The position numbers were made by a program, and so were the translations under genes. Below the pieces are notes generated by a model. The model saw only the letters and a program-made list of their open reading frames with translations. It was not told the origin of the DNA and searched no databases. From positions 1 through 64,000 of IMG/VR virus record IMGVR_UViG_3300024339_000012: a DNA stretch of 64,000 nucleotides. One strand, given 5' to 3'. Shown here piece by piece: positions 32,061-63,553 of this stretch; position 1 is the stretch's first letter; every line of letters begins with the position of its first letter. The DNA is from a virus.

Positions 32061-32545
32061 TCGATATTATAAAATACAAAGGCGATATATATCCTGAATT
32101 TCAAACAATAGGATTTGCATCACAATTTGCTATTCCTTATGCAAAGCATGTATGCAAAGGCAAGGGCGTTGACATAGGTTGTGGTAAAGAAGAATGGGCT
32201 TTTCCGGGAGCTATGATTGTAGATACTAAGATTAGCTATAATGCAATGGAATTTCCTCATTCGAATTTAGATTATATCTTTTCCTCTCATACGTTGGAAC
32301 ATTTACCTTTATGGGTAGAGGCATTAGATTACTGGACACACAAACTAAAATCAGGTGGTACATTGTTTTTGTACCTGCCCGACTATTCTCAAGAGTATTG
32401 GAGACCATGGAATAACAGAAAACACTTCAATATATTTACACCTGAAATAATTGAAGATTACATGGAAGAACATGGGTATCACAAGATATTTCGTTCATGT
32501 GTTGATCTTAACAATTCATTTATGATAATGGGAGAGAAGTTATGA
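32057..32545 (+). CDS. Class I SAM-dependent methyltransferase (Methyltransf_11-like)
   Basis: GVDIGCG, LDYIFSSHTLEH and LKSGGTLFLYLP motifs. Confidence 0.85.
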   Translation: MIDIIKYKGDIYPEFQTIGFASQFAIPYAKHVCKGKGVDIGCGKEEWAFPGAMIVDTKISYNAMEFPHSNLDYIFSSHTLEHLPLWVEALDYWTHKLKSGGTLFLYLPDYSQEYWRPWNNRKHFNIFTPEIIEDYMEEHGYHKIFRSCVDLNNSFMIMGEKL

Positions 32546-32775
32546 CAGAACAGTATAACCAAGTATGTGAGTGGCATGGGGATTTAGCAATACATCTGCT
32601 ATGGTGGCCTGTTGGGTTTGTTGATAAGCATGTTTATGATGGTATTGGCGTTCTTAATTACATGGAAAAAGAAATGAGTAGAATGTCAGGAATACCGAAG
32701 GATATGTTTGGCCCTAAGACATCAACCAGTTTATTATTACTTGATATGTCAAAAAAAGTACCCCGACTTGATTAG
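32542..32775 (+). CDS. Hypothetical protein
   Basis: ATGA overlap with the previous gene; 77 aa. Confidence 0.4.
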   Translation: MTEQYNQVCEWHGDLAIHLLWWPVGFVDKHVYDGIGVLNYMEKEMSRMSGIPKDMFGPKTSTSLLLLDMSKKVPRLD

Positions 32776-32786
32776 TCAGGGTACTT
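32756..32786. terminator. Hairpin / probable intrinsic terminator
   Basis: aagtaccccgact-tgatt-agtcagggtactt inverted repeat. Confidence 0.45.
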
Positions 32787-32802
32787 AACTTATTTTTGCA
32801 GT

Positions 32803-33060
32803 ATGACACAAGATCAATTAGATATCCTTTGCGTAAATACTCAGTCCGATATTGGAGATCAGGCAGTAGTACTGGTAAGGCTCATTAAAAATGTAGACCT
32901 AAGCGCACAAGCCTATGCAGCAAATTTCTTTGCCCTGCATGCACACATGAAATCTATTCAACATATGGACATTGATTCAGGAGACCTGACCGATGAACAA
33001 ATGTTCCTGTGCCAACAAAATATTACATGGTTGGTAAACAATGCCCAGCGTTGGCATTAA
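32803..33060 (+). CDS. Hypothetical protein with its own host-type promoter
   Basis: 85 aa; TATTTTTG at 32791-32798; last + strand gene before the convergence point. Confidence 0.55.
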   Translation: MTQDQLDILCVNTQSDIGDQAVVLVRLIKNVDLSAQAYAANFFALHAHMKSIQHMDIDSGDLTDEQMFLCQQNITWLVNNAQRWH

Positions 33061-33166
33061 TCATGTACCTGCATAATCCTTGCCGGGGCGTCAACCAATC
33101 TGTTTCGTGATTCAGCCCCATAAATTCTGCGATTCTTTTATTGTTTTCCATATTATATATTTTTAT

Positions 33167-33760
33167 CTATTTATTGTTTTCTTCCACTTTATGCATGGCG
33201 TCATTATATATTTCTTCTATTTCCTCCTTCTTTGCGTAAGGACAATCTTCTAAAGCATCTTCTAAAGTAAGGTGCTCATCAGCAAACATCGAACTTAAAT
33301 CAGATTCCCAACCTATAATATTTTCTATGTATCGCCATTCCCCATAAGAGTACTCCTCATCTTTTACTATTCCGCTTTGATTAAATGTTGTCCTACCTGC
33401 GAAATCACATCCAGGTTCTTCATACTCTATACATGCTTCAAGTTCGTACTTTTTACAAATTTCTTCGACAAGTTTAATTGGGGGGGACCAAGCAGAATCA
33501 CCAATGACTATTAATCCATTATCATTCCATTCAATTTCAAAATCAAACCATTTAGTCCCATACATATAGTAGACACCAAAGTCAGTTCCATACTTTTTTT
33601 CAAAGCCTTCGCCTCCATCAAGTTCACCTTTACCTATAACATATTCACTCCACTCCGTAAAGTATTCAGATTTGTCATAAGTTTTTAATTTCTCTTCTAA
33701 TTTGTTGAGAGCAGTTTTACTGCCATCAAACGATATCCAGTTGTAACAATAATTTGCCAT
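33167..33760 (-). CDS. DUF1281/YubB ferredoxin-like (Api92-like) protein
   Basis: MANYCYN, YGTKW, SAWSPP and YEEPGCDFAG motifs. Confidence 0.7.
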   Translation of the reverse strand: MANYCYNWISFDGSKTALNKLEEKLKTYDKSEYFTEWSEYVIGKGELDGGEGFEKKYGTDFGVYYMYGTKWFDFEIEWNDNGLIVIGDSAWSPPIKLVEEICKKYELEACIEYEEPGCDFAGRTTFNQSGIVKDEEYSYGEWRYIENIIGWESDLSSMFADEHLTLEDALEDCPYAKKEEIEEIYNDAMHKVEENNK

Positions 33761-33799
33761 ACTATATAGTTTTATTATATTCGTTTTTAATTCTTTTAG

Positions 33800-33976
33800 T
33801 TATTCACTTGTTATCAGTAGTACTTCTCCTTCTGGATATCCACTACTTCCTTTTCTATACTCTTCAACTTCAACAACCCAATAATTAGTCGGATCATCGC
33901 TGCCGCTCATGACTGTGTTTACTTCACTATCAGGGTCACAAAACTGTAACTCGTGTATTAATTCTTGTACTGTCAT
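33800..33976 (-). CDS. Small hypothetical protein (58 aa, not in ORF track)
   Basis: Hand translation MTVQELIHELQFCDPDSEV...LLITSE*; common small-phage-gene N-terminus. Confidence 0.6.
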   Translation of the reverse strand: MTVQELIHELQFCDPDSEVNTVMSGSDDPTNYWVVEVEEYRKGSSGYPEGEVLLITSE

Positions 33977-34009
33977 AATGCTTAGTTTAAATTTTTAAGT
34001 CTATTTTGT

Positions 34010-34279
34010 TTAATCAAAATGTGAATACAACCCTTGTAAGAAATTAGGAACAGAGTTGTGTTGTTCAATTCCATCTTCATCGCCTGAATGTTCAACCATA
34101 GAGGTGCCACCGACTTTTAGGGTAACTGTTATGGTTTTATCTCTACGAACTATTGAATCTATACCAATAGAGGCATATCCTTCCCAACAGAAAGCATCTT
34201 CAATTCTGAGTTCTTCGTCGACTGACTTTATAAACTCTTCATTCACTGTTAATTTTTTCATATCTCTTAATTTATGCAA
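34010..34279 (-). CDS. Hypothetical protein
   Basis: ORF in the - strand small-gene run; start uncertain. Confidence 0.4.
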   Translation of the reverse strand: MHKLRDMKKLTVNEEFIKSVDEELRIEDAFCWEGYASIGIDSIVRRDKTITVTLKVGGTSMVEHSGDEDGIEQHNSVPNFLQGLYSHFD

Positions 34280-34482
34280 ACTGAATTAATTGGTTGGTCA
34301 TCTTGTAAGTCATCTGTACTGAAATCATCATTCTCATCCAAATGTCCTTTTGTTGGTGTAAACAGAACTTTGTTGTAGGAGTTTCCTTCATCGTCTGAAC
34401 TTGAAACAACTTCCATTTCTTTACACTCAGGATTTTTGTTCAGGAAATCATTAAGTGTTGCTACGTAATCTATAAATTTCAT
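34267..34482 (-). CDS. Hypothetical protein
   Basis: SSDDEGNSY..VCIN motif typical of small phage proteins. Confidence 0.6.
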   Translation of the reverse strand: MKFIDYVATLNDFLNKNPECKEMEVVSSSDDEGNSYNKVLFTPTKGHLDENDDFSTDDLQDDQPINSVCIN

Positions 34483-34733
34483 TATTCTATGGGTTTAGTA
34501 GGCTTAATAGCCTGTAAGTAATCATCATAACCTATTCGTATTCCATCGTACTTTATAAAGCTACATCTTCCAATGTGAGCCCAATAAATAGAGTCTTTCC
34601 AATGCTGATATTTTACTAATTCTGTAATACTATCAGTTAGGATTGTGTTCTTTGATTGCTCGTCATGTACCTGTCTTACAGATACAACACATACAGCAAC
34701 CAATAATGCAATTATTACTACCGATACTTTCAT
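34482..34733 (-). CDS. Hypothetical membrane-anchored protein
   Basis: N-terminal hydrophobic helix; translationally coupled to the next gene. Confidence 0.5.
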   Translation of the reverse strand: MKVSVVIIALLVAVCVVSVRQVHDEQSKNTILTDSITELVKYQHWKDSIYWAHIGRCSFIKYDGIRIGYDDYLQAIKPTKPIE

Positions 34734-34807
34734 AAATAATAAGTGTTAGTTAAAAACAAAAAGCCCCATAACTTTCGTTATGAGGCTCACAGATGAAATA
34801 TTCCCTA

Positions 34808-35293
34808 TTATTTAATAGGCTCTTTTTGTTCAGGCAATGGATTGCTGAACAGTATGTTTTGGTTTACTCCAAGTATATCCTGCCAATGAATTATGGCAAA
34901 GATAGTTTGTTCTTCTCCAAATTTTATAGGTTCCCAGTTAGGTGACAGCGTTATTTCATCGCCAAGCTGTAGTTCATCCTCTTCTGAAAATTCTGCAATT
35001 TGCTTTTCATTCTTAACGTATTCCGGAATAAGGTTTACTTTGTTCATCCTGAGCTGTTCATTAACTTCAGGAGCCATTGCTACAACAAAGTATCTGTTAC
35101 CGGCATCAGGATTTTCAGTTGCACGGTTGTCCATATTCTTTTCTATGGCAAGATCTTTAGGTATGAGTATATCAACGCCTTTAGCCTTAGTATATCTATC
35201 ATCCCTCATTATATTCAGGACTATACGACCGTTAACAGGTCTTAGTCGTGGTGACTGTAATTTAAAATCATCTTTTTTTTCTGATTCTTCCAT
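34808..35293 (-). CDS. groES: Co-chaperonin GroES-like protein
   Basis: LRPVNGRIVL..GVDILIP..VVAMAP..LQLGDEI..IIHWQDILGV matches the GroES fold with insertions. Confidence 0.65.
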   Translation of the reverse strand: MEESEKKDDFKLQSPRLRPVNGRIVLNIMRDDRYTKAKGVDILIPKDLAIEKNMDNRATENPDAGNRYFVVAMAPEVNEQLRMNKVNLIPEYVKNEKQIAEFSEEDELQLGDEITLSPNWEPIKFGEEQTIFAIIHWQDILGVNQNILFSNPLPEQKEPIK

Positions 35294-35296
35294 TGG

Positions 35297-36142
35297 TTAA
35301 GTTTTAAAATTGATTTCGTATAACTTTCTAATCTTTGGATCGTTCATGGCAATAAATTCTCCAATACGACCGTTGACAAATTTAATAGTATTTGTGAGGT
35401 TTTCTTCCTCGATGCTGATATTCTTTATTTGTAGCCATTCCCTTATATGATCTGACAGGTCTTTCCAGTCATATCGTTCAGTAATCAGATCTCGCATACT
35501 CTCAAAGAATATCTGTTGTAGCAGGGCCTGTATTTGTGTAAAGTGACCATTGCCAAAGAATCCTTTGTCAGCTGACAATGGTGAGGGGTGTACACCTGTA
35601 AGAACAAAGTGTTTAAATGAATCTATTTCACATTCAAGGTTTTTAGCATTGTTTCCCCATAGAACGAATATTACACGTCTGGGATACTTTTCAGAAATTT
35701 CATGAATAACCTTGGTAGTAAAGTACTCCCAGCCTTTGTCTTTATGGCTATTACTTGCACCCTCGACAACGGTAAGCACTCTATTCAAAAGCAGTACTCC
35801 CTGTTCTGCCCATGGCGTAAGATCATTACTCTTAAATAAATCGTGTTTTCCACCATACAGTTGAGCAGAGATCTCTTTAAATATGTTTCCTAATGATTTG
35901 GGTGTCTTAGGTGATTTTGAGCTAAATGACAGCCCATGTGCATCCTTTGAATTTGGATAGGGGTCTTGGCCTATTATGACAACTTTAAGTTTGTCATATG
36001 GACATAGCTTAAAAGCATTGAGTACTTCCTCTTTTTTCGGTAGTACTTCTTTGTATTTACGTTCATAATTTACAAACGCTCTAAGGTCAGCCATCTTTGG
36101 CTCTTTCAGTATCGGGCTAATTATATGATCCCAGTCTTTCAT
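35297..36142 (-). CDS. ung: Uracil-DNA glycosylase, family 1
   Basis: GQDPYP, AHGLSFS, WAEQGVLLLN, VLWG and HPSPLS motifs. Confidence 0.95.
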   Translation of the reverse strand: MKDWDHIISPILKEPKMADLRAFVNYERKYKEVLPKKEEVLNAFKLCPYDKLKVVIIGQDPYPNSKDAHGLSFSSKSPKTPKSLGNIFKEISAQLYGGKHDLFKSNDLTPWAEQGVLLLNRVLTVVEGASNSHKDKGWEYFTTKVIHEISEKYPRRVIFVLWGNNAKNLECEIDSFKHFVLTGVHPSPLSADKGFFGNGHFTQIQALLQQIFFESMRDLITERYDWKDLSDHIREWLQIKNISIEEENLTNTIKFVNGRIGEFIAMNDPKIRKLYEINFKT

Positions 36143-36333
36143 ACGAATAGTCTTTGTCGTGATTCTGTATTATCGAGTTCGTTTCTGAGAAAACTGACAC
36201 TCTTATTTTTACTGAATACTCTACTGAAAGTATGTATCATTTTCACAGTACACATTAGTTGTGTATATGTTTTACATGATTCTATACATTTCTCTATCTT
36301 GTCGAAATGCACATAAATGTTAGGATTTGTCAT
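36139..36333 (-). CDS. Hypothetical protein
   Basis: Overlap-coupled small ORF. Confidence 0.5.
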   Translation of the reverse strand: MTNPNIYVHFDKIEKCIESCKTYTQLMCTVKMIHTFSRVFSKNKSVSFLRNELDNTESRQRLFV

Positions 36334-36647
36334 AAGTTCAGATTTTCAATTGCATTAAGCAACCCTAATTCAAATGTGCCGTCCTTTCTTGTAAATTCTC
36401 TGATTTCTCCTACAAGATTATTTGCGATTTCTCCGAATCCTGCTAATTGTTCATCTTTAGCATCACAATCACTTATCATATGATTAGTGCGTTTCTGATA
36501 TTCTGCTATTCTATATATTTCAATAGCTTGATTCATTGTAACATTTGATGATTTCATCAAATCTTCACATACCATTGTTATCTCTTCAAGATATGGTAAT
36601 GTCATGAAATTGTTTTTTCTTTGTGATTGATCAAATAGTGTTCCCAT
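36330..36647 (-). CDS. Hypothetical protein
   Basis: MGTLFDQ..DAKDEQLAGFGE; overlap-coupled. Confidence 0.55.
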   Translation of the reverse strand: MGTLFDQSQRKNNFMTLPYLEEITMVCEDLMKSSNVTMNQAIEIYRIAEYQKRTNHMISDCDAKDEQLAGFGEIANNLVGEIREFTRKDGTFELGLLNAIENLNL

Positions 36648-37107
36648 CGTTTTTATTTTTAATTTGTAAATTAACTCCGTATTTGTAATGATCAGGTGGT
36701 AACGGGTGTATATCCTTTTCTGCTAAGAAATTCAATACATCCTCAATATAAACAGCCATCTGACCAACGCTGTACTGTTTAAGATCATCAACATATCTTA
36801 AGATGTTTTCTGATCCATCCGGAAATACAACAACCTTGGTATTTGTTCTCAAATGAGCAACAATAGCCTGGTGTATTTCATCGTATGTCCAACCAGCAAA
36901 TGCTGTTGATTTCATACATGTACCCTTGATAATACCTCCGAAATAATATGCCCATTGATATTTAGTTACAGGCTCATGCTCAAGCTCAAGAGAAACATCC
37001 ACACGCTTACCCTCAAGTGACTTTAACTTGCCAGAATATAGTTTCGGATAATCATAAACTATTATACCATTCCTTACAGTTCCTTTATGTAGTACAGTAA
37101 CATCCAT
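36631..37107 (-). CDS. NinB/YbcN-like recombination accessory protein
   Basis: QWAYYFGGII..DEIH..MAVYIEDV..AEKDIHPLPP pattern. Confidence 0.5.
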   Translation of the reverse strand: MDVTVLHKGTVRNGIIVYDYPKLYSGKLKSLEGKRVDVSLELEHEPVTKYQWAYYFGGIIKGTCMKSTAFAGWTYDEIHQAIVAHLRTNTKVVVFPDGSENILRYVDDLKQYSVGQMAVYIEDVLNFLAEKDIHPLPPDHYKYGVNLQIKNKNDGNTI

Positions 37108-37161
37108 TTCGTTATATTAAAAAGTTAAGGAAGGAAATAACTCCCTCCTTAACTCTAATGA

Positions 37162-37812
37162 CTAAAAATCGTCTTCTGCAATTTCCATGTCTGGATTAGC
37201 GTTCGTAGTTGCAGCTGGTGCATCACTCTTTGGCTGTGCTTCTTTTCTTTCAATGGTAGGTTCTGGTTCTGCAGGTGCTCCTGCAGGTGGTCTTTTATCA
37301 TCAGTTCTTTTGTAAAAGTCTCCTGACGGTACTCCTCCACTTTGTTTCAAAGAAGGATCTCCAATTATTGCAGGTGGTGTATCTCCATCGGAAAAGAACT
37401 TCTTAGCAAGAAAGCTATATTCTTTACCTGTAGGTTTGCCATTCCAATAATGTACATCAAGACCAACGATTCCCCAACATTTAGCTTTTGCAAGCTGTTC
37501 TTTAGAAACTTCACCTTCAGGAAAGCCTAATGCTTTCTTCATATTGGTTAACAGGAATTCGCTTTTACAACGAATATTGTCATCTTTCCTGCCAGGATCT
37601 CCAATTGGTAGAGTTGAGTAATAGAATCCGCCGTTTATGGTTTCTTTATTGACATTAATAAATGTTATATCCAATCCGGGGTTTCCATTTTTATCCTTTA
37701 ATTCTTTTCCACTCTTATCCACAAAGGGTTTAATAGATAAGATTTTCATTCTGTGCAATCCGGGGCTCATTATGCCTCCAGTTGACTTTTCAGTTGCTGG
37801 TAATCCACTCAT
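37162..37812 (-). CDS. Putative single-stranded DNA-binding protein
   Basis: PGLHRMKI N-terminal strand and acidic C-terminal tail (EDDF); adjacent to the Sak4-like ATPase. Confidence 0.55.
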   Translation of the reverse strand: MSGLPATEKSTGGIMSPGLHRMKILSIKPFVDKSGKELKDKNGNPGLDITFINVNKETINGGFYYSTLPIGDPGRKDDNIRCKSEFLLTNMKKALGFPEGEVSKEQLAKAKCWGIVGLDVHYWNGKPTGKEYSFLAKKFFSDGDTPPAIIGDPSLKQSGGVPSGDFYKRTDDKRPPAGAPAEPEPTIERKEAQPKSDAPAATTNANPDMEIAEDDF

Positions 37813-37829
37813 AAGTGTAAGTATTAGTA

Positions 37830-38567
37830 TTAGTTATAAAATTCTTCAAATTTAGCAAAAACCTCAACCAAATCATTAGGAATGAATTGATCATCAAACA
37901 TTCCAAGAGGTGATTTAGCCTGTGTGCCATTTCCTTTTTGTGTACGGAAAACATATTTGTTTCCTTGATCAGATTCCTGAACTTCTGCCCAGAATACTGT
38001 TGTGAATAATCCTTCAGGAGTAATTGCCTCTCTGGTAAACTGTCCTGATGGTATTTTAAATTCACGAGTAGGAGTTGTATCATTAGTACTCTTACTTTGA
38101 GTAACATCTTCATGTGACATGATAACAACGATGAAGTCATTACGCAGTTTCTTAATGGTATCAACGAGATCTTTAAACTCTTTTGCAAACTTCTTATATT
38201 TGCTCCAGTTGTCATCCTCAAGCACGTCAAGAACACTTCTCAGCATTGCGTAAGTAAATGTATCAATGATGACATAATCAATCGGACGTGCCTTTATTTG
38301 GTTTTCAGGCATATTGTGGATATCGATCAGAATCTTTTTTATTTCAGGAATGTAATCTTCCGGAATATAATTAGACTTCAATGAATACTTAGAAGTTCCT
38401 TCTTTAACTTCCTTTTTGTAAAGAGTTCTGAAATTCTTTGCAAATCCACGAAAAGGTAGTTCCTTGTCTTCAGGTACAATCCATATGCCCCTTTCGGGAT
38501 CAAGGTTTCTCCCGCTTGTTGTTTTGCCACTACCCGAAGGTGCAACAACTAAAATTGCTCTCGCCAT
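37830..38567 (-). CDS. AAA_24 / Sak4-like ATPase (recombination)
   Basis: Walker A APSGSGKT, VIIDT, MSHE and AKSPLGMF..IPNDL. Confidence 0.8.
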   Translation of the reverse strand: MARAILVVAPSGSGKTTSGRNLDPERGIWIVPEDKELPFRGFAKNFRTLYKKEVKEGTSKYSLKSNYIPEDYIPEIKKILIDIHNMPENQIKARPIDYVIIDTFTYAMLRSVLDVLEDDNWSKYKKFAKEFKDLVDTIKKLRNDFIVVIMSHEDVTQSKSTNDTTPTREFKIPSGQFTREAITPEGLFTTVFWAEVQESDQGNKYVFRTQKGNGTQAKSPLGMFDDQFIPNDLVEVFAKFEEFYN

Positions 38568-38606
38568 CTTTTATGATTTTAATTAAAATATTTAGTAAAA
38601 AAATAA

Positions 38607-38942
38607 TCACTTCAATTTCATTTTGTATTTCTCTATTAAGTTTTTGTATGCATTTTTATTCTCAAACTTGCGCCTGATCTTATACCTTAGCTTTTCGTTA
38701 TACACTTTTTTGTGGAAATAGAATTTCCCAAATCCATATATACTTATTTCTATGCCCAACTTAATGAAGTATTTAATCCCATACTTTCCAAAGAATGCAT
38801 CTACATACTGCTTTACCTTTACTGGTGGTAAATTCATATCAGATGCTATTCTCTGGATAGCCTTGAAATTACTTGTAGGTTCTTTAGAATAGTGTGATAT
38901 CCTCTGATTCCTGAAAACTTTCTTTTTGTTCATTTTTCGCAA
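38607..38942 (-). CDS. HU/IHF-like DNA-binding protein
   Basis: Basic protein with IASDMNL..V..EISIYGFGKF motif. Confidence 0.55.
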   Translation of the reverse strand: MRKMNKKKVFRNQRISHYSKEPTSNFKAIQRIASDMNLPPVKVKQYVDAFFGKYGIKYFIKLGIEISIYGFGKFYFHKKVYNEKLRYKIRRKFENKNAYKNLIEKYKMKLK

Positions 38943-40752
38943 TTAATATTGGATCGGTTTCATTGTAATTCAAGAAGTGATGATCACGACCTCTGAAACG
39001 TAATAATACTGGATATTCCTTTCTTGTCTTAACTCCAATTAGCTTAGGTGTTTTAACTTTCTGGACATGAACTTCACTTATAACTTCCTCTTTATTTTCA
39101 TCTTTCAAATGAACACAAAGGATCTCATAAAACTTCTTATTCCATACTGCACCACCAGTAATCTGAAACACTGATGGAGCTGATGGATTCTTTCTATCCT
39201 CACCTTGAGGTGTTGGGGGATGCACTACAATAACTTTAATGATATTGTGAGTAGTACAGAATCTCTGTTCGGCTGATAATTCATTTTCAAGATACTGATC
39301 TAATGAGCCAGTATATCTATGATTTAATGCGTTCCAAGGGTCTGTAACAAAACCTATAATACCACGTTGACGTATCATTCTCCTTGCTACCTGACGTAAT
39401 TCTTCAGGTGTATATCCCTCTTCACGATCAATAAATTCGAAATGCTCAGATATAAACTTCTTAGCAATAGCCATGTCCTTTTCAGTAGCACGCCCATTAA
39501 CATCTAAATCTATGGTGTTACCAATATAAATTTCAATGAATATTATGTAAGCATCTTCTACGGGATAGTTCTCTGGTAGGTAACATCCGAATTTATAACC
39601 ATATTTTATAGCGGCTAATATTAACAGATTAAACATGAATGTACTCTTACCCATATTACCATAACCATTGAATCCTACTAAGTGGCCAGTCTTCCATCGG
39701 AAATGAGCCTCAAGATCTCTTACACCTGTAGGCTTACCCTTTTTCAATCCATAAGTATATTGTTCATTGATTTTATCGCTAACATCATCAATAGTAACTA
39801 CATCATCCAAAGGAAAGCTTTCAGCTCTGTCAAATGCTTCCTGTAATGCTTCAGGACCGATATGCCAAAGCACATCATTACCATCATTGCAGACAATCAT
39901 TTTACCCTTCTTATCTTCATAAGTGTAATTATGGAACTTGATTATCCTGCATTTGTCATAGCCAAAACGTCTGCCTATTTCATTACGCAGTTTAATGCCA
40001 GCGCCATCATTGTCAGTTGCAATGTAAATGATCTCAACCTCTTCAAAATACTGATATGTATGATCAAAGTAGGATAGTGCTAAGTGATTACCTGAGTCAA
40101 CTTTACCAGTCTTTACATAATACTCATTTTCCTCAACAGATATTGACGATCCATTAGGAACACTGCAGGAATGTACTATTCCTATTTCATGGAATGATAG
40201 TGTGTCAATTTCTCCTTCAGTAATAACACAATAGTTCTTGTTATTGCGTACCCAGTCAATACCCCATGGTATAAGTTTACTACCTTTCTCAATCTTAAAA
40301 TTCTTCTGACCATCACGATATTTAATCATGGTTAGCCAGCCATTTTCACGATACGAGAATGCTATACAGGGCTTCTCTACAAATGTATTGTTATGCTTTT
40401 GCCTGATAGATACTGTGGCATTACGAACTTCTCTTGAATCAAGCGTTTGGTTACTGATACCACGCTTATTAAAGTATTCACGTTGCTTGTCAGTAAGGTC
40501 TTGTAAGTGTTTTTTCTCGATTATAGGTTTGTTCTTAACCCAGTCTTTAGGAGTAAGTCCACCAGTATGACCACAATGCTGACAATACCACGTTCCTTTA
40601 ACAACGTTTACAGCAAGTTTCTTCTGACCTTTCTTCTTACGGTGAGGTTCACACTTAGGACATATAACATACGCTTCGTCCTGTTCGTTTACTTTTGCCT
40701 CTACAACTCCTACAATACTAAATTCCTGATAATTATTTGCGAATTCTGTCAT
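38884..40752 (-). CDS. T7 gp4/Twinkle-type primase-helicase
   Basis: Zn finger CPKC..CQHC, TOPRIM TEGEID and ATDND, Walker A GYGNMGKS, DPWN, HVQKVK. Confidence 0.9.
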   Translation of the reverse strand: MTEFANNYQEFSIVGVVEAKVNEQDEAYVICPKCEPHRKKKGQKKLAVNVVKGTWYCQHCGHTGGLTPKDWVKNKPIIEKKHLQDLTDKQREYFNKRGISNQTLDSREVRNATVSIRQKHNNTFVEKPCIAFSYRENGWLTMIKYRDGQKNFKIEKGSKLIPWGIDWVRNNKNYCVITEGEIDTLSFHEIGIVHSCSVPNGSSISVEENEYYVKTGKVDSGNHLALSYFDHTYQYFEEVEIIYIATDNDGAGIKLRNEIGRRFGYDKCRIIKFHNYTYEDKKGKMIVCNDGNDVLWHIGPEALQEAFDRAESFPLDDVVTIDDVSDKINEQYTYGLKKGKPTGVRDLEAHFRWKTGHLVGFNGYGNMGKSTFMFNLLILAAIKYGYKFGCYLPENYPVEDAYIIFIEIYIGNTIDLDVNGRATEKDMAIAKKFISEHFEFIDREEGYTPEELRQVARRMIRQRGIIGFVTDPWNALNHRYTGSLDQYLENELSAEQRFCTTHNIIKVIVVHPPTPQGEDRKNPSAPSVFQITGGAVWNKKFYEILCVHLKDENKEEVISEVHVQKVKTPKLIGVKTRKEYPVLLRFRGRDHHFLNYNETDPILIAKNEQKESFQESEDITLF

Positions 40753-53373: not shown

Positions 53374-53919
53374 ATGAAACCGTCAACGACACTGCGCTAC
53401 AAAGAGAAGTATGAATTCAATCCTTTGACCAAATCAAATGAGATATATCTGACTAAGGATACTAAACTTATCAACGTGGATGGTAAGGAAATAGATATTG
53501 TACATGATATCCCTGCCATAGATATTTATGAAGCGTTTGTAAAATATATAACAACAGCTCTCAAGCTATCTAACAAAGCCAAAGCTGTGCTTAGGTATAT
53601 TGTAATGTACAGCAAACTCACTGATGATATAACCGTTATTGATATGGATAAGCTCAAAGAGAATACAGGTTATAACTCTCTTGGGCCAATATATGCAGGA
53701 TTTAATGAGCTTATCGAAGCACAGCTACTAGCAAGGACTAAGTACGATGATCAGTTCTTTATCAATCCTAACTTCATTTATGACAAGGTAAATGTTATTG
53801 CATTAAACAATAAATATCTTATCGAGAAATACACTGAAGCACCAGTTCCAAAGAAAAAACAAGATCTACCTGCTGGTTTTGATATTTCCAGCAAGATAGA
53901 TCCAGGGGAAGACTTTTAA
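53374..53919 (+). CDS. RepL-like / wHTH replication-maintenance protein
   Basis: LSNKAKAVLRYI..IYAGFNELIEAQLL..FFINPNF; lone + strand gene with TATATTTG at 53345-53352. Confidence 0.6.
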   Translation: MKPSTTLRYKEKYEFNPLTKSNEIYLTKDTKLINVDGKEIDIVHDIPAIDIYEAFVKYITTALKLSNKAKAVLRYIVMYSKLTDDITVIDMDKLKENTGYNSLGPIYAGFNELIEAQLLARTKYDDQFFINPNFIYDKVNVIALNNKYLIEKYTEAPVPKKKQDLPAGFDISSKIDPGEDF

Positions 53920-55776: not shown

Positions 55777-55840
55777 AAAGCGTATAGTTTAAGTTAAAAA
55801 GAAAAATAACTCTTGCGATGATCTGCAAGAGCCACTCAAA

Positions 55841-56218
55841 CTAATTCATACTTAACCATACTGCCATGGGATAACCTGTCTTATTAAGTTTATAATAACA
55901 GTACTTGCCCTTTGGACTTTTGTGAACAATGAAACCTTTGTACTCGTGTTCTGTCTGCTCGTGAATCCAAACGGGGTATTCATTGCCACTCTTGGCACTG
56001 ATGCACTTCACGAAGTTAGCGCCACTCTTAGTTTCGAATACAGGAAACACTGTTCCCTCAACATCTATTGTTTCGCCGATGTCAATGGCGATGTTCAGGT
56101 CAGTTTTAAATGGTTGTGCCTCCGAGAAGGTCTGACCGGTACAATTAAATACTCCAATGAGTAATAATCCAACAACTGATATTGCAAGCAGTAAAGCTTT
56201 TGCACGATGATTTTTCAT
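55841..56218 (-). CDS. Hypothetical exported/membrane protein
   Basis: N-terminal signal/TM segment; leader motif upstream. Confidence 0.6.
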   Translation of the reverse strand: MKNHRAKALLLAISVVGLLLIGVFNCTGQTFSEAQPFKTDLNIAIDIGETIDVEGTVFPVFETKSGANFVKCISAKSGNEYPVWIHEQTEHEYKGFIVHKSPKGKYCYYKLNKTGYPMAVWLSMN

Positions 56219-56259
56219 GATAATAGTGTTTGTTAATAGTTAAAAAGAAAAATAACTCC

Positions 56260-56424
56260 CTACTGGGGAGCTATTGGTAAAGGGTTATTCTGAATGTGTT
56301 CATAGTGTTCCTGTGCTTGTGCCTCAGCTATAGCCTCAGCATCTGCACGGGTATGACCGTCATCCATTAAGTGTACTATGTACTCTGCATCACTAATGCA
56401 ATGGTATGTCTCTTCTGTACTCAT
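56260..56424 (-). CDS. Hypothetical protein
   Basis: The position of the leader motif indicates ATG 56424 (MSTEETY). Confidence 0.5.
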   Translation of the reverse strand: MSTEETYHCISDAEYIVHLMDDGHTRADAEAIAEAQAQEHYEHIQNNPLPIAPQ

Positions 56425-56479
56425 GGTAGCATATGTATTGGTTAATAAGAAAAATAAGCACGCGTTAGCGTGCCTACTA

Positions 56480-56686
56480 CTACATACGTACACCTACACT
56501 CACACCTGTTGTACCTACACCTATGGCCTTGGCTCTGTTGCTGGCCTCAGTAGTAAGTGCATCATGCAAGTAGTACAATTCATTCCAACGTATAGTGTCC
56601 TTACCGTGCACCTTATACATTTCCTCTTGTACTTCATTGATCTTGTTGTTTAACTCTTGATAAGTCATCTGCTTAATGTGTCTCAT
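56480..56686 (-). CDS. Hypothetical protein (first gene of the leftward arm)
   Basis: 68 aa; leader motif at ~56695-56722. Confidence 0.55.
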   Translation of the reverse strand: MRHIKQMTYQELNNKINEVQEEMYKVHGKDTIRWNELYYLHDALTTEASNRAKAIGVGTTGVSVGVRM

Positions 56687-56870
56687 GTCTGTAAGATTAA
56701 ATTAGTTAATTAAAAAAATAAAAAGTCTTAGCTACACAAAACAAGCCCCCCTACCCCGATCCAAAAAGAAAAGTTGAAAAACCCGTATATGACCCTCTCG
56801 AAGTTTTCTAAAATTAAATTTTTTTTGGTTTCACGTTTACGTGCCTTATTATGGATTCGCTTATAAGTTG

Positions 56871-56878
56871 TATATTTG
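56871..56878 (+). promoter_or_regulatory. Bacteroidota -7 promoter element
   Basis: TATATTTG upstream of 56918; similar elements at 58847 and 60842. Confidence 0.5.
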
Positions 56879-56917
56879 TAGTGATTATTTTTCTTTTAGA
56901 ATTTAAAATTTTAATTT

Positions 56918-57172
56918 ATGAAAACGTATATTGATAGTGCTGGCAGTTCTCATCATATTGACGAGAATAATATTTTTGGATTGGCTTATATAAAACCTGT
57001 AATGATTATTGTAAATGGTTTGTGTGTAAGTTTTAATGGTAAGGATGCGGCTACTGATGCTTATGAGGAGTTATTGCATACTATGATGGCTAAGGCTCAG
57101 AAGGAGAAGGATAGGCTTGCTGTAAAGGCTAATAATGAGAGGGTGGAGAAGTTGAGGGAGTTGTATGGGTAA
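56918..57172 (+). CDS. Hypothetical protein
   Basis: 84 aa; its stop codon is the TAA of hairpin site 1. Confidence 0.6.
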   Translation: MKTYIDSAGSSHHIDENNIFGLAYIKPVMIIVNGLCVSFNGKDAATDAYEELLHTMMAKAQKEKDRLAVKANNERVEKLRELYG

Positions 57173-57301
57173 CGGTTTGACTATGTTTAGTGCCGACAAA
57201 AAGAAACGAAATTTTTATAAACTTAAACACTTTAGAAATGAAAAAAGGAACTAATAAATTACCACAAAATGAGGCATTAAATATAAGTATTGTTATGCCC
57301 C
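57167..57301 (+). repeat. attC-like hairpin site 1
   Basis: taacggtttgactatgtttagtgcc ... ggcattaaatataagtattgtta imperfect inverted repeat. Confidence 0.65.
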
Positions 57302-57474
57302 GTTTTAAGGTTTTCACCTACTCGGTATACAAAACAGATAAAATAGGATATTGCCATTGGGCAAAGGGGCTTAATATGATTATTGAAAAAGATGGTGTAA
57401 AAATAGAGCTAAGTAGTGATGAGGTGCAAAAGATAGTAAAATCTTTGCCCCGTACAATAGGGGGCAGATACTAA
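57238..57474 (+). CDS. Cassette gene 1, hypothetical
   Basis: ATG 57238 lies inside the loop of site 1 and reads in frame through GTT (..ALNISIVMPRF..). Confidence 0.55.
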   Translation: MKKGTNKLPQNEALNISIVMPRFKVFTYSVYKTDKIGYCHWAKGLNMIIEKDGVKIELSSDEVQKIVKSLPRTIGGRY

Positions 57475-57476
57475 AT

Positions 57477-57611
57477 GGGGCATAACGGTGTTGGTATGTT
57501 GTCGTTGCGTAATTATAATACAAATTTTAAAAATATAGCAAATGATACAGTTTATTAAAAACCTATTTAATGGCAGTAAGCAGCAATGCAATATACCTGT
57601 TGTTAGGCGTA
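57477..57611 (+). repeat. attC-like hairpin site 2
   Basis: taacggtgttggtatgttgtcgttgc ... gcaatgcaatatacctgttgtta. Confidence 0.7.
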
Positions 57612-57832
57612 TGTGCCTTGAGCAGGAGGAAATGAATGAATACCAATACACGGATGTAGTTATTAATGTACTGAATGTCCCTTTTATGACTTTAACGGAG
57701 AGTAAAATGGGAAACGTATGGTATCATGATGAAATTGATGCATTATTTTGTTTAACAGCAAGAGGCTTTAAGGTTATAAAAGGTAGTAAGAAAATATTGT
57801 TTGAGCGTGGACTTGGGAGGCATTACGCCTAA
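57542..57832 (+). CDS. Cassette gene 2, hypothetical
   Basis: ATG inside the loop of site 2, in frame through GTT (..QCNIPVVRR..); stop is the TAA of site 3. Confidence 0.6.
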   Translation: MIQFIKNLFNGSKQQCNIPVVRRMCLEQEEMNEYQYTDVVINVLNVPFMTLTESKMGNVWYHDEIDALFCLTARGFKVIKGSKKILFERGLGRHYA

Positions 57833-57914
57833 CGGTTTGTGTATGGCAAGTAGCCCAAGCCAACGAATTAAAAACTAAATATTAATAGGCTATTTGCTAT
57901 ACACGTTGTTATGT
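57824..57914 (+). repeat. attC-like hairpin site 3
   Basis: taacggtttgtgtatggcaagtagcc ... ggctatttgctatacacgttgtta. Confidence 0.7.
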
Positions 57915-57948
57915 GTTGTGCGGATTTAAAGCAAAAAACTTAATTAAA

Positions 57949-58359
57949 ATGACTGATAAAGAGATTTACGAAAGATTTATGTTATGGATGGGAATGAAGC
58001 CTTCTAAAACAAAACAAGTAGAAGAAAACACAGTAATAAGATATGAGGATATTGACAACTGTGATGTTAGATTTACAAAAACTGGTTATGGTGAATTTTA
58101 TGCTGGTGCTGCTATAAAGGGTGGTAAGAAAGTTGCGAGAGCTGGTTGGAACGGCAGGGATATGTATGCTGTTATAATGCCAGGGTATCCAGATGGCGTT
58201 ACTGTGAATGAAGTGACACAGAAAGCGCATAATCTTCCGGAAGGAACTGTTTTGTATTACAGGCCCTATTTCCAATTGTACACAGCACAGAAGGATGTGG
58301 CGATGTGGGCACCGAGTGGATCGGATGCATTGGCAGAGGATTGGTTGATTGTTGAGTAA
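57949..58359 (+). CDS. DUF2829 / Tad2-like domain protein with an unrelated N-terminal segment
   Basis: AIKGGKKVARAGWNG..MY..PYF..WAPSGSDALAEDW is the DUF2829 signature; likely ATG at 57949. Confidence 0.75.
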   Translation: MTDKEIYERFMLWMGMKPSKTKQVEENTVIRYEDIDNCDVRFTKTGYGEFYAGAAIKGGKKVARAGWNGRDMYAVIMPGYPDGVTVNEVTQKAHNLPEGTVLYYRPYFQLYTAQKDVAMWAPSGSDALAEDWLIVE

Positions 58360-58399
58360 TCAGCGATAATTATTTTCTTTTTTGTTTGTTATTAATACT

Positions 58400-58441
58400 A
58401 CAGTCCGTTGGTTGTCATGATTGATCAACGGGCTGTTTTTT
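58400..58441 (+). terminator. Intrinsic terminator
   Basis: acagtccgttg...caacgggctgt followed by a T-tract. Confidence 0.6.
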
Positions 58442-58454
58442 AAACCTGATAAGA

Positions 58455-58835
58455 ATGTTAAGTAAAGTAAAACAAATTGCGATACAACCGATAGTTGAAT
58501 ATCTGAAAGAAAATGCTGTTGGAAAAGAAAATGAAGTTAAGAATATAGAACTTAAATGCTACATATCCGACTGGTATAATATTTCTCTTGAAGATACTGA
58601 TGTAAGAAGAATAATTAATTTGATCAGATTGAATAGATTAATTAAAGGATTACTTGCGGGAAAGAAAGGTTATTACATTTCTACCAAGGTTGAAGAGGTT
58701 GACGCTTATGTAACCTCACTTAAGAAAAGAATAATGAAGCTACAGCAACTGGCAGGCTCATTTGAGAAAGGATATGACGAGATACTGAATCCAAAACAAA
58801 TATCAGAAAATAAGGATGTCGATGCTGACTTCTAA
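58455..58835 (+). CDS. wHTH-like hypothetical protein
   Basis: DVRRIINLIR..LAGKKGYYI pattern. Confidence 0.55.
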   Translation: MLSKVKQIAIQPIVEYLKENAVGKENEVKNIELKCYISDWYNISLEDTDVRRIINLIRLNRLIKGLLAGKKGYYISTKVEEVDAYVTSLKKRIMKLQQLAGSFEKGYDEILNPKQISENKDVDADF

Positions 58836-58914
58836 GATAATTACTTTATATTTGTAGCCAATAAGTGAAACGATGTGATTATTTTTATTTTTAACCAAAC
58901 AATAGTAATAGTGT

Positions 58915-59205
58915 ATGAATAGAATGTTTAGTGTCGATGAAATAATCGATCAGAATGCATTTCGAGTATCAATCCAAAAATACGCTACCGAGTTTACCCC
59001 GCGCTCAATTGAGAAATTTGAGAATCAGGCAATGTCATGTAGTAGCATTGGCCCTGTTATATGGTGGTGTGAAATCGGAAGAGTATTCTCCGGAACAATA
59101 TATATTTTCGAAAGTGTAGAGGACTATAACAAGTTCACAAAATTAAACCAGGATCTTAAATTTAAAATAAACTTTATACCATGGGCAAAAAAATTAGAAT
59201 CGTAA
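58915..59205 (+). CDS. Hypothetical protein
   Basis: 96 aa after a promoter and leader. Confidence 0.5.
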   Translation: MNRMFSVDEIIDQNAFRVSIQKYATEFTPRSIEKFENQAMSCSSIGPVIWWCEIGRVFSGTIYIFESVEDYNKFTKLNQDLKFKINFIPWAKKLES

Positions 59206-60975: not shown

Positions 60976-61533
60976 ATGCCCGGTATATTTACAGTCAACA
61001 ATAGCCATACGGTTATTCTTTCCTCAGAAGCAGTTAAACTCTGCACAGAACTTTCCAAACTTACAGAAGAACAGGTGCTCTATATAATCTTAGCTTATGA
61101 TTATTTAGATAGTCCATGGCGTAGATATCCACTTGAGGATCGGAAACGACTTTCTAAAAGAAAAATTTGGGGTGATCAGGAATTTGTCCCGGAAGAATTT
61201 GCCAACATGCAATTGGCGATCGACGAATACAAAGGATTGATTTACGATATAGATTATGAGATGCGTGATGCATTGCTCAGTAAATTAAAAACCTTAGATC
61301 ATAATCTGATTATCGAAACAGATACAAGTAAGATTAATTTGATATTACGTTCTCAGGATATTTTAAAAGCCAGGCTCGATGAACTTGATATAAAAATTGA
61401 TATAAAGCAGGAAGCTATAAAACTTAAATCCAGTAAGAAGCTCAGTTATATTGAAATGTTCATGCGTAATCGCGAACAGTACAATATAAAAATGGCTGAA
61501 GTAATGAGATTAAAGGAAGAAGCTGATGCTTAA
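60976..61533 (+). CDS. Putative terminase small subunit / conserved TerL-upstream protein
   Basis: Helical 185-aa protein overlapping the TerL start; assignment is positional. Confidence 0.4.
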   Translation: MPGIFTVNNSHTVILSSEAVKLCTELSKLTEEQVLYIILAYDYLDSPWRRYPLEDRKRLSKRKIWGDQEFVPEEFANMQLAIDEYKGLIYDIDYEMRDALLSKLKTLDHNLIIETDTSKINLILRSQDILKARLDELDIKIDIKQEAIKLKSSKKLSYIEMFMRNREQYNIKMAEVMRLKEEADA

Positions 61534-63553
61534 TCTTGACAGGACAGAGTATATCTATACTCCCATAATTAAACAGGGTGGGTTTAATCCCTCTCCTGTA
61601 GCTGGCAGAATTCCTTACTGGGCGGATTCTATATCGAATCCAAAATGTGCAGGAACTAAAGCATGGGAAGATTTCTGGCTTGAGCAAATATATTATTGTT
61701 TCAATGGATACGATACTGGTGGCATACATATACCCGGGCCATATTATCACTACCTGAATTTCAATTCGATTAAAGGATTACATGGAACGATATACCCTCA
61801 CTTTCTTGACGTTCACCAATCCTTATTTACCATTCGTGAAGAGATTAAAGCAGATGACACTCTTGTAGGAGCGATCATACCAAAGGCCCGTAGAAAGGGT
61901 CTTTCTTTATTTGGTAATGCACTGGCCGCTTATGGCATGCGCTTTATTGAGGATTACCGAATGGCTGTAGCTGGTGGTCTTGAACGCTATGTAAATGGTT
62001 TCCGTGCCAAGTTATATATGTCGTACAATAACGTTCCTCCGGAACTTGCCTTGAATCACATTCGCAGAAATAGCGAAGAGATAGTTGTGGGTTATGAGGA
62101 AATGATCAACAATCAATATGAAGATGTAATTAATGCAATTGGTCTTTTCAAAACTTTACAGGACAAAGCATCAAAACTTGAAGGTGAGTTTTTCCATGAT
62201 TGTATTTTTGAAGAGATGGGCGAATTTGAGAACTCAAGACCGGCATATGAGTCTATACGTCCAGCGCTTGAAATTGGTGAACAAACAAAGGGTACGTTCT
62301 GGTTCTACGGCACAGGTGGTAACATGCTTAAAGGATCAGGTCCGTTCAAACAATTCTGGCATGAGGCTGAATCATACGGATTAGTAAAATTCTTTATCAG
62401 TGGTGCTCGTTACTATTTTCCATATTATCGTGGAGCTGTAAACCAAGATGGAATAAGCGAAGCCAAGACTCCAATACTCGACGCACAATATCCAGATCTA
62501 AAACCTGAACAGCTATTAGGTTGTGAAGATGTTAAAGCTGCTACTGATTCAATCAAGACTGAACGTTTAAAGAGAGCTAAGAATCCAAACAAAAAAGCAT
62601 TAGCCGAATGGAACCAAAAATATCCACTAACAGTTGAGGAAGTATTTACATCTTCAGGATTTAATAATTTCAACAGCGATCTTCTTTATAATCAGCAATA
62701 CCAAAATGATTCTAAGGAACGCAGATGGACTGAGCATGTACTTGACTTTGTAAAAGATGACAAAGGAAATATTCAGTTACCACTTGAAGTAACAGCAAGA
62801 CCGGCAAAGAAAACTGATAAGGAATGGGAGATTGTAGATATATACCTGCATCCTAAAAAGAATTATAAAAATCTTGACATTGGTGGTTTCGATGGTTATA
62901 ACGAAGATCTAACTTTAACAAGTAAATCCCTGGGGGGAATTGTTGTTGTCAGAAGATTCGACGAATTTGAATATGCCGAAAAGGAACATAATGAAAAAAC
63001 GGTTATCTGCCATTACATGAAGCGACCACCGAGAAAAGAACTTCATTGGGATATTGGATTAAAGGTTGCTGTTTATTATGGCCTGCTAAAAAATATGATG
63101 ATATCTGCAGAGAGTGATCTTGTCATTGGATACTTCAAAGCAAACAACGGCAGAAAGTTTTTATCACCACGTCCTAAGTCATTCGAATCACAAGATTCAA
63201 AATTAGTTCATGACTATGGTGCAAAAATGACGACATATTCTAAGCCAAGGATGTTAGGTTTACTACAAAGTTTTGTAGAAGATTCTATAATGACATGTTT
63301 CTTTAATGTGCTTATACAAAACTTCCTTGCTTATGACTATGAGAACATCGGAACTGACTGGGATGATGTTGATGCACTCGGGCTGGCACTCATGAGAATC
63401 AGCGACATGAAACAAAAACCTGAGAAGACTGGAGATGCAGAATCATATGAAATTGAGATGGGCTTAGGTGATTTTAAACTGGTAAATGGTGAGATCGTAA
63501 TGGAGGGAGAATATGATGATTCTCTTGATCAGGATTTCAGTTCTATGTTTTAA
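61526..63553 (+). CDS. terL: Terminase large subunit (crAss-like)
   Basis: PGPYYHYLNF, Walker A-like KARRKGLS, Walker B FEEMG, GTGG, YPLTVEEVF, nuclease GGFDGY and DDVDA. Confidence 0.88.
   Translation: MLNLDRTEYIYTPIIKQGGFNPSPVAGRIPYWADSISNPKCAGTKAWEDFWLEQIYYCFNGYDTGGIHIPGPYYHYLNFNSIKGLHGTIYPHFLDVHQSLFTIREEIKADDTLVGAIIPKARRKGLSLFGNALAAYGMRFIEDYRMAVAGGLERYVNGFRAKLYMSYNNVPPELALNHIRRNSEEIVVGYEEMINNQYEDVINAIGLFKTLQDKASKLEGEFFHDCIFEEMGEFENSRPAYESIRPALEIGEQTKGTFWFYGTGGNMLKGSGPFKQFWHEAESYGLVKFFISGARYYFPYYRGAVNQDGISEAKTPILDAQYPDLKPEQLLGCEDVKAATDSIKTERLKRAKNPNKKALAEWNQKYPLTVEEVFTSSGFNNFNSDLLYNQQYQNDSKERRWTEHVLDFVKDDKGNIQLPLEVTARPAKKTDKEWEIVDIYLHPKKNYKNLDIGGFDGYNEDLTLTSKSLGGIVVVRRFDEFEYAEKEHNEKTVICHYMKRPPRKELHWDIGLKVAVYYGLLKNMMISAESDLVIGYFKANNGRKFLSPRPKSFESQDSKLVHDYGAKMTTYSKPRMLGLLQSFVEDSIMTCFFNVLIQNFLAYDYENIGTDWDDVDALGLALMRISDMKQKPEKTGDAESYEIEMGLGDFKLVNGEIVMEGEYDDSLDQDFSSMF

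Follow-up and report, generated by a model that had tools for sequence, protein, structure and literature searches.

A probable integron-like cassette system of Bacteroidota and their phages, represented by three attC-like hairpins in a tailed phage contig

This report concerns three hairpins, and the small genes that they separate, in a stretch of 64,000 nucleotides of tailed phage DNA. The stretch (the window) is the first 64 kb of one 89,236-base virus record of IMG/VR, IMGVR_UViG_3300024339_000012, with a CheckV completeness of 65%. The three elements are probably recombination sites of an integron-like cassette system that is common to Bacteroidota and their phages. They belong to a large family of sites with a conserved folded structure and a rule of pairing between cassette ends; elsewhere in the family, cassettes have sharp borders running from one TAAC to the next, and bacterial arrays lie beside a recombinase gene. 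For the window itself, the evidence is membership in this family and the end-pairing signature. An initial annotation, made from the letters alone, had described the region as an integron-like cassette array. Its observation is real and its integron-like reading largely right, with the crossover end and the enzyme family corrected below.

The hairpins of the window and their family

The three sites are listed here with their scores under R1, a covariance model built from an alignment of 117 non-redundant sites.

Site 1, 57170-57295, plus strand: attC-like imperfect hairpin of 126 nt; R1 70.9 bits, E = 2e-10; in training alignment A1.
Site 2, 57483-57605, plus strand: attC-like hairpin of 123 nt; R1 74.8 bits, E = 3.8e-11; in training alignment A1.
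Site 3, 57830-57911, plus strand: hairpin of 82 nt, short-loop class; R1 68.0 bits, E = 6.6e-10; absent from the training set.

Three hairpins built on one plan had been reported at these positions, and this was confirmed by reading of the sequence, by a regular expression (regex) and by model scores of 68-75 bits. Each site consists of arms held in common, then a variable arm, an A+T-rich loop and the complementary arm. All three open with TAACGGT; the 3' ends are GTTGTTA in sites 2 and 3 and ATTGTTA in site 1, whose sequence plan is TAAC-GGTTTG-ACTATG...ATAAGT-ATTG-TTA. The common left arm can be written TAACGGT-K-T-K-nn-TATG and the right arm ATA-nn-n-TTGTTA, and the nn positions co-vary among the three sites. 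The feet in the window include GCCTAAC, GCATAAC, GTTAGGC and GTTATGC; GGGTAAC of site 1 is a poorer fit to RYYYAAC.

Exactly three sites were found in the whole 89,236-base contig, both by regex and by the covariance model with its filters off. The best score of any non-site in the contig was 16.6 bits, compared with 68.0-74.8 bits for the sites, and the opposite strand of site 3 scores 16 bits. The motif TAACGGT occurs 12 times in the window (4.07 expected), a number reached in 0 of 100 shuffles, while GTTGTTA is not enriched (16 vs 13.4 expected). Two further candidates were taken as chance: a fourth pairing of TAACGGT with GTTGTTA at 53549-53638 on the minus strand, which lies inside a plus-strand open reading frame (ORF) and scores 13 bits, and a 23-nt partial match at contig positions 86374-86396 on the minus strand (E = 1.4), which has neither stem nor array context.

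Scans with exact patterns returned 31 and 71 IMG/VR loci. A scan of genomes returned at least 120 loci; most record titles among the matches listed name Bacteroidota, and these matches include Flavobacteriaceae, Bacteroidales, Cytophagales and Saprospiraceae, with a few metagenome-assembled genomes (MAGs) under other labels. A looser site finder detected 142 sites across the viral loci and the contig, compared with 4 in reversed-sequence controls. A covariance-model scan, one of the checks proposed with the initial annotation, was run on the viral loci with a model that includes sites of the window, and revealed a large family: 212 matches at E <= 0.01 in 100 viral (IMG/VR) loci, several of which hold at least 10 matches on one strand.

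The structure is conserved throughout the 117 aligned sites. TAAC and GTTA are invariant (117/117). RNAalifold predicted 21 pairs, 14 of which show compensatory double changes; one covarying pair, for example, is UA in 54 sequences, GC in 35 and AU in 12. The predicted hairpin has four parts, namely the invariant TAAC/GTTA foot, an asymmetric internal loop (GGTTT vs nTT) between the foot and the next box, a 7-bp box in which G-nn-TATG pairs with TATA-nn-C, and a variable stem and loop. Extrahelical bases were not identified. Three pairs are conserved as G.U in 105-114 of the 117 sequences, G.T outnumbers A.C in the stems (398 vs 24 alignment cells), and the TAACGG strand is the more stable one in 101/117 sites. 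The G.T excess and the bias in stability indicate that the site folds on one strand, the TAACGG strand.

End pairing, the cassette unit and its polarity

The bases that follow each GTT had been said to match those before the next TAAC, not those of their own hairpin, and this holds for both neighbouring pairs of the window. Positions 57292-57305 (GTTATGCCCCGTTT) pair with 57473-57486 (AAATGGGGCATAAC) over 14 bp including one G.T. Positions 57602-57611 pair with 57824-57833 over 10 bp, followed by a 2x1 internal loop and by 4 bp between 57614-57617 and 57819-57822. At least six contiguous pairs directly beyond GTTA/TAAC are thus present in 2/2 window pairs, compared with 1.4% of random pairs of family sites and 0/138 sites whose own two flanks were compared. 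If pairing at no fewer than 8 of the 10 flank positions is required, the counts are 50/58 for adjacent bacterial sites and 6/25 for adjacent viral sites, compared with 5.5% of random site pairs and 28/312 for the two flanks of one site; complementarity of the ends is therefore commoner than chance in the larger set. The rule is most regular in G001, the chromosome of a Bacteroidales MAG, where for nearly all neighbouring pairs the six variable bases after GTTA complement the six before the next TAAC, and a fixed G.T follows these six pairs in 57/62 cases.

The crossover end was located by comparing the flanks of similar sites. For an oriented, genome-grouped linkage count, sites from different contigs with hairpin cores at least 85% identical were paired: the right flank alone was conserved in 8 pairs, the left alone in 0, both in 13 and neither in 116. 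The hairpin of site 3, for instance, is found again in L005 and L027 with its right flank retained and with different left flanks. Two other contigs, L254 and L255, share 324 nt with 94.8% identity from the T of one TAAC to the C of the next, and outside this segment they are unrelated. Taken together, the right-flank linkage and the shared segment point to a unit made of a hairpin and the gene downstream of it, with the crossover within TAAC. Two points of the initial annotation are revised by the same evidence: the crossover is not at the right-hand GTT, and the unit is not a gene with the hairpin behind it, since the hairpin travels with the downstream gene. The crossover is accordingly predicted at the TAAC end, as TAA/C on the plus strand, which is G/TTA on the other strand in integron usage. 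By the TAAC-to-TAAC border rule, the window would hold two closed cassettes.

Inferred cassette 1, 57173-57485, plus strand: 313 nt; site 1 minus its TAA, with gene B, through the TAA of the next site; borders placed by analogy at TAA/C.
Inferred cassette 2, 57486-57832, plus strand: 347 nt; site 2 with gene C; border rule taken from other contigs.
Gene B, 57238-57474, plus strand: 78 aa with the start at an ATG in the site 1 loop, or 59 aa with the start at 57295, where the ATG lies inside GTTATG.
Gene C, 57542-57832, plus strand: 96 aa with the start at an ATG in the site 2 loop, or 73 aa with the start at the ATG of 57611; orphan.

An independent retrieval, in which viral loci were fetched by protein patterns of genes B and C alone, led back to the same sites. 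A model match lies directly upstream of the homologue and overlaps the start of its ORF in 8 of the 12 assessable loci, so that most of the assessable homologues do have a site at this border. A further match lies directly downstream in four loci (L245, L247, L251 and the duplicate records L255/L256). All 39 model matches in the homologue loci are on the strand of the gene, and similarity among the loci is limited to the cassette, two near-identical records excepted.

Phage and bacterial arrays differ in polarity. The ORF lies on the TAACGG strand in 22/25 viral cassettes, as does the longest upstream frame at 109/133 viral sites. In bacterial cassettes the ORF is on the TAACGG strand in 7 cases and on the opposite strand in 24, with 4 more cassettes lacking an ORF of 40 codons; the upstream frames are divided 37 to 111 in the same sense. 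In G001, every cassette ORF longer than 100 aa is antisense to TAACGG. The folding strand is thus the bottom strand relative to the genes in bacteria, as in integrons, and the sense strand in phages. The reversed polarity means that the phage array is not simply a piece of a host array, and argues for a separate cassette pool in phages as opposed to fragments of host arrays. Judging from the reading frames, the ORFs of phage cassettes seem to start inside the site loop. When the ten largest distinct viral cassette ORFs were scanned, three were DNA methyltransferases above the cut-off and one gave a weak match.

The recombinase, the proposed mechanism and its rivals

In bacteria, between 36 and 63 sites are lined up on one strand, in arrays that adjoin a gene for a tyrosine recombinase. 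In G001 (loci L231-L234) the site finder gave 63 sites on one strand at 2,560,389-2,627,098 (67 kb), and the recombinase gene, a 383-aa ORF, lies at 2,627,432-2,628,580 on the minus strand, 334 nt beyond the last site. In Olleya (G004) there are 36 model matches, in an array that starts about 1 kb past the recombinase gene, and in Maribacter (G003) arrays abut a recombinase homologue at all three copies. Further homologues were found in six other bacterial loci of 8 kb. Among the viruses, a recombinase gene was found in 5 of the 50 loci searched (from 113 site-bearing viral loci, mostly the longer contigs), and short homologues of 264 and 267 aa adjoin arrays in the viral loci L033 and L043. 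The search for a co-occurring recombinase, which had been suggested as a check, was therefore positive for bacterial arrays and some viral loci, with a Xer-like gene in each case, and negative for the contig of the window.

Two features of these arrays are recorded as side observations. The Maribacter genome has two layouts (L238 and L240/L241): in one copy the recombinase is downstream of the array on the same strand as TAACGG, whereas the remaining two have it on the opposite strand, its 3' end toward the array. In the G001 array, a cassette of about 253 nt recurs many times; its ends are CCATTT...AAATGG, and since it has no ORF longer than 80 codons it is a repeated cassette without a gene.

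The G001 recombinase stays below all curated cut-offs. It reaches 192.7 bits with the XerA/integron model (cut-off 220) and 178.6 bits with the integron-integrase model TIGR02249 (cut-off 265), the latter in two pieces. Its alignment with archaeal XerA structures (4a8e, 5hxy) is unbroken from end to end. The alignment with VchIntIA (2a3v) is split and leaves about 40 residues of VchIntIA unmatched; this region we take to be the location of the IntI-specific domain. In the available text of the integron papers, that domain is located around patch III. An XerA-like enzyme without the IntI insert makes the system integron-like, not an IntI integron. Hence the proposal of integron cassettes holds for attC-like sites that bound mobile single-gene cassettes, and is not supported for an integron of the IntI type.

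The mechanism that we propose takes the site and its adjoining gene as a unit that can be swapped. In a circular cassette, the two ends would extend the foot of the hairpin by at least 10 bp, and it follows that in a linear array the bases after GTTA pair with those before the next TAAC. A Xer-like tyrosine recombinase without the IntI insert would cut within TAAC on the folded strand, with single-stranded DNA as the substrate, and thereby insert or excise cassettes. The array of the phage would consist of two cassettes, carrying genes B and C, which would have arrived in this way, and of a third unit formed by site 3 and the gene with a Tad2-like domain. The enzyme would be supplied in trans, by the host or a co-infecting phage, or would be encoded in the missing third of the genome.

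Several observations weigh against this interpretation. The absence of a tyrosine recombinase from the window, noted at the outset, extends to the whole 89-kb contig, in which PF00589 had no match (the contig being 65% complete). Among the site-bearing phage records that are at least 90% complete, 3/23 have a recombinase and 20/23 do not, and no experiment ties the Xer-like family to these sites. The end pairing of adjacent viral sites, though above the random level, is far weaker than that of bacterial sites; sites missed by the finder may explain part of the shortfall. Not all of the 8 right-flank pairs are independent, the clean TAAC-to-TAAC case is one contig pair only, and 4 of the 12 assessable homologue loci have no upstream site at E <= 0.1. 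Sites 1 and 2 singly are not unusually stable in thermodynamic terms (DNA fold z-scores on the plus strand of +0.51 and +0.56, with -2.00 for site 3), so the structural case relies on covariation across the family, not on energy. In four seawater runs (X4, X6, X9 and X10) cassettes B and C are present unchanged and no joint occurs at any site, so that neither excision nor cassette polymorphism was directly apparent in this phage. This comparison is based on contigs, in which rare forms are hidden, and it demonstrates neither stability nor mobility.

Four other explanations were considered. The hairpins could be mainly expression elements of the phage operon at the RNA level, intercistronic structures that govern translation starts, RNA stability or termination, with the mosaic borders incidental. 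The phage data lend themselves to this explanation, since the strand that folds well is sense in the 22/25 cassettes and 109/133 upstream frames given above, the conserved G.U pairs favour that strand, ORFs start in the loops and stop codons fall in TAAC, and in RNA folding site 3, though no other, stands out (z = -5.2). It is nonetheless unlikely: bacterial sites are antisense to the genes and stand in arrays beside a recombinase, and variable but complementary cassette ends and TAAC-to-TAAC units in unrelated contexts are left without an explanation. A secondary RNA role of the sites in phages may exist. Slightly less probable still is that the sites are hotspots of general (homologous or illegitimate) recombination between phages that need no dedicated site-specific enzyme, on the pattern of the promoter-stem-loop cassettes of T4-type phages. 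The conserved left arm of 16 nt and right arm of 13 nt could act as microhomology, and a lack of recombinase in 20/23 complete phage genomes would be expected; the homology between L254 and L255, however, ends after the four shared bases TAAC, with differing neighbouring arms, and four bases are too short for homologous exchange. Nor would hotspots account for the strand-specific wobble bias, the end-pairing rule or the tie between bacterial arrays and a recombinase gene.

The chances of the remaining two are lower again. That the array is a strict cluster of attC sites lacking integron-integrases (CALIN), made of ordinary attC sites and served by the canonical IntI integrase of some host, comes only just behind the hotspot explanation. 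No recombinase adjoining an array reaches the integron-integrase cut-off (best 178.6 vs 265 bits), the IntI insert is lacking, and IntegronFinder 2.0, in its available text, reports almost no integrons in Bacteroidetes. The feet, such as GCCTAAC and GTTAGGC, are on the other hand close to RYYYAAC/GTTRRRY, and in the available text of Qi et al. 2023 (PMC9892861) IntI1 recombined one attC site of the CALIN of Polaribacter phage P12002L, a genome that has six matches to model R1 at E <= 0.005; the attC tested with IntI1 and the model matches are linked by genome only, not site by site. The reading of each gene as a small transposon, or an element like a miniature inverted-repeat transposable element (MITE), with terminal inverted repeats and insertion at TA or TAAC, was rejected as highly improbable. 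Each segment between sites does have inverted-repeat ends, but these vary by cassette (TGCCCC, GGCGTA and many others), at odds with the constant ends that a single transposase would require. Conservation falls on the hairpin between the genes and not on the gene ends, and the contig has neither a Y1 transposase (PF01797) nor a tyrosine recombinase.

The phage array, known systems and significance

The contig encodes a large terminase (61526-63553), a primase-helicase, a helicase and tail-fibre-like proteins, and hence represents a tailed phage. The primase-helicase has its best database matches in phages of Tenacibaculum, Riemerella, Cellulophaga and Flavobacterium, and the stretch is contained wholly or partly in 24 seawater or marine runs. 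The array sits in a plus-strand operon upstream of the exonuclease and terminase genes. A blastn search of 55800-59200 against 50,697 phage records gave no match, and no Rfam family was above noise in 56000-59000. A search for relatives by the exonuclease gene gave 6 loci, the sole close one of which (61% identity) begins at the exonuclease gene itself. Two further genes border the cassettes.

ORF A, 56918-57172, plus strand: 84 aa, upstream of the array; its stop codon is the TAA of site 1.
Gene after site 3, 57949-58359, plus strand: Tad2-like domain PF11195 (Pfam E = 1.1e-17) behind an unrelated N-terminus.

The TAA of TAAC doubles as the stop codon of ORF A in site 1 and of gene C in site 3, and gene callers start genes B and C at ATGs within the site loops. 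For neither gene was there a Pfam family above threshold or a PHROG family. Gene B has 9 homologues of 69-80 aa from metagenomes besides the window protein (10 cluster representatives), and their N-termini read through the right arm of the site. Gene C has 16 homologous clusters from metagenomes (17 cluster representatives including the window protein); an alignment of 14 representatives shows the site's GTTGTT translated as V-V or a close variant. The third unit, which is without a closing site, probably has the gene after site 3 as its gene. No complementary partner was seen by eye upstream for the 3' flank of ORF A, which is not counted as a cassette, and no closing partner was seen by eye for the flank after site 3, so that only two closed cassettes are counted in the window.

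Some variation was observed around the array. Homology with the viral contig L027 (93.8%) covers 57822-58111, from 8 nt before site 3 into the gene with the Tad2-like domain; its stop at 58111 suggests that the N-terminal part of this gene travels with site 3 and that the Tad2 part does not. In contigs of the seawater runs X4 (a contig of 3146 nt) and X9, position 58015 is joined to 58361. The missing 345 nt (58016-58360) encode the Tad2-like domain, an ORF of 33 codons remains, and the ends are not at a site; populations thus differ by an in-frame insertion or deletion of the domain. At 56459-56629 (171 nt), in the region of small minus-strand genes upstream of the array, the contig of run X4 has 169 different letters, and the contigs of X6 and X9 diverge at the same position, 56458. 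The 35 nt at 56887-56921, upstream of and into the start of ORF A, are the sole match of short X6 and X9 contigs whose flanks differ, and may be a repeated promoter or leader element.

Sedentary chromosomal integrons of the Vibrio cholerae type have long one-strand arrays with homogeneous sites of about 125 nt and many cassettes of unknown function. The G001 array, with its 63 sites over 67 kb on one strand, is similar; the enzyme family and the phylum are different, and the window has only three sites in a phage operon. Promoter-stem-loop (PeSL) cassettes of T4-type phages have an early promoter in each unit and are exchanged by homology. They share with the present system small accessory phage ORFs that are flanked by repeated stem-loops and shuffled between genomes; in the present system, unlike PeSL cassettes, the borders are sharp at a 4-base foot, and in bacteria the site family is tied to a tyrosine recombinase.

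The nearest resemblance in detail is to attC sites and CALINs. The window sites are imperfect hairpins of 82-126 nt with TAAC/GTTA feet, as compared with about 57-141 nt and RYYYAAC/GTTRRRY for known attC sites, and both systems have one folding strand, single-gene cassettes without an integrase nearby, and sequence beyond the crossover that belongs to the neighbouring cassette; the asymmetric internal loop may correspond to the unpaired spacer of attC sites. The available text of Qi et al. 2023 (PMC9892861) reports 17 CALINs in 10,705 phage genomes, one of them in P12002L with HattCI and Infernal matches. Orphan DNA methyltransferases, a feature of the phage CALINs in that text, account for three of the ten largest viral cassette ORFs scanned here, and P12002L, which is named there, carries sites of the window family. 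In this cultured virulent phage (L242) the six model matches lie at 30008-39245 on the minus strand, all on the strand of the genes; among them are short forms (49-59 nt) flanking DNA methyltransferase genes. Unlike attC sites, the present family has conserved boxes of its own and fixed G.T pairs; unlike attC sites and CALINs, it has phage genes on the folding strand that seemingly start inside the site loop; and unlike IntI integrons, its arrays adjoin a Xer/XerA-like recombinase without the IntI insert.

A second comparison is with rAID-1 of Bacteroidales, described in the available text as a XerD-family recombinase followed by co-directional short genes with intergenic repeats "reminiscent of integrons" (Ross et al. 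2019, 10.1101/471110; PMC12247911, 2025). The G001 and Olleya arrays are like rAID-1 (10.1101/471110) in layout and description. Under the definition given there, the 5' recombinase is XerD-like and at least 44% identical to B. fragilis BF9343_RS08045, and it is followed by at least two co-directional genes and by conserved intergenic motifs. The window has co-directional genes and repeats and no recombinase, and is thus not a rAID cluster under this definition; nor are its genes known immunity genes. The available descriptions of rAID-1 (10.1101/471110; PMC12247911) do not include folded sites, end pairing, a crossover point or phage copies. A literature search returned CALINs in phages and rAID-1 only; for Xer-linked arrays of Bacteroidota it yielded no description of a folded site, end pairing, the crossover point, phage copies or reversed polarity.

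A wider proposal is offered tentatively. Bacteroidota and their phages might possess a phylum-wide counterpart of the integron that runs on a Xer-like recombinase without the IntI insert. The phages would hold a separate pool of cassettes of reversed polarity, in which the folded site, placed on the sense strand immediately ahead of its gene and containing the start codon, would serve both as recombination site and as expression leader. Counter-defence genes, for example methyltransferases and Tad2-like sponges, would be exchanged by phages in this way, mostly with the enzyme supplied in trans.

Although integron surveys report almost none in Bacteroidetes, sites of this family are abundant in that phylum and in the phages of marine Flavobacteriia. 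In the available text of the integron papers, the IntI insert is treated as defining and as necessary for integron recombination; if a Xer-like enzyme does run the system, capture of cassettes by folded sites would be possible without this insert. Such a system would explain the base-exact movement of small accessory genes between unrelated phages. DNA methyltransferases are among the genes observed in such units, and site 3 is followed by a gene whose Tad2-like domain is of the family that takes its name from the anti-Thoeris protein Tad2. As a practical handle, the sites would also help in finding small accessory genes of phages.

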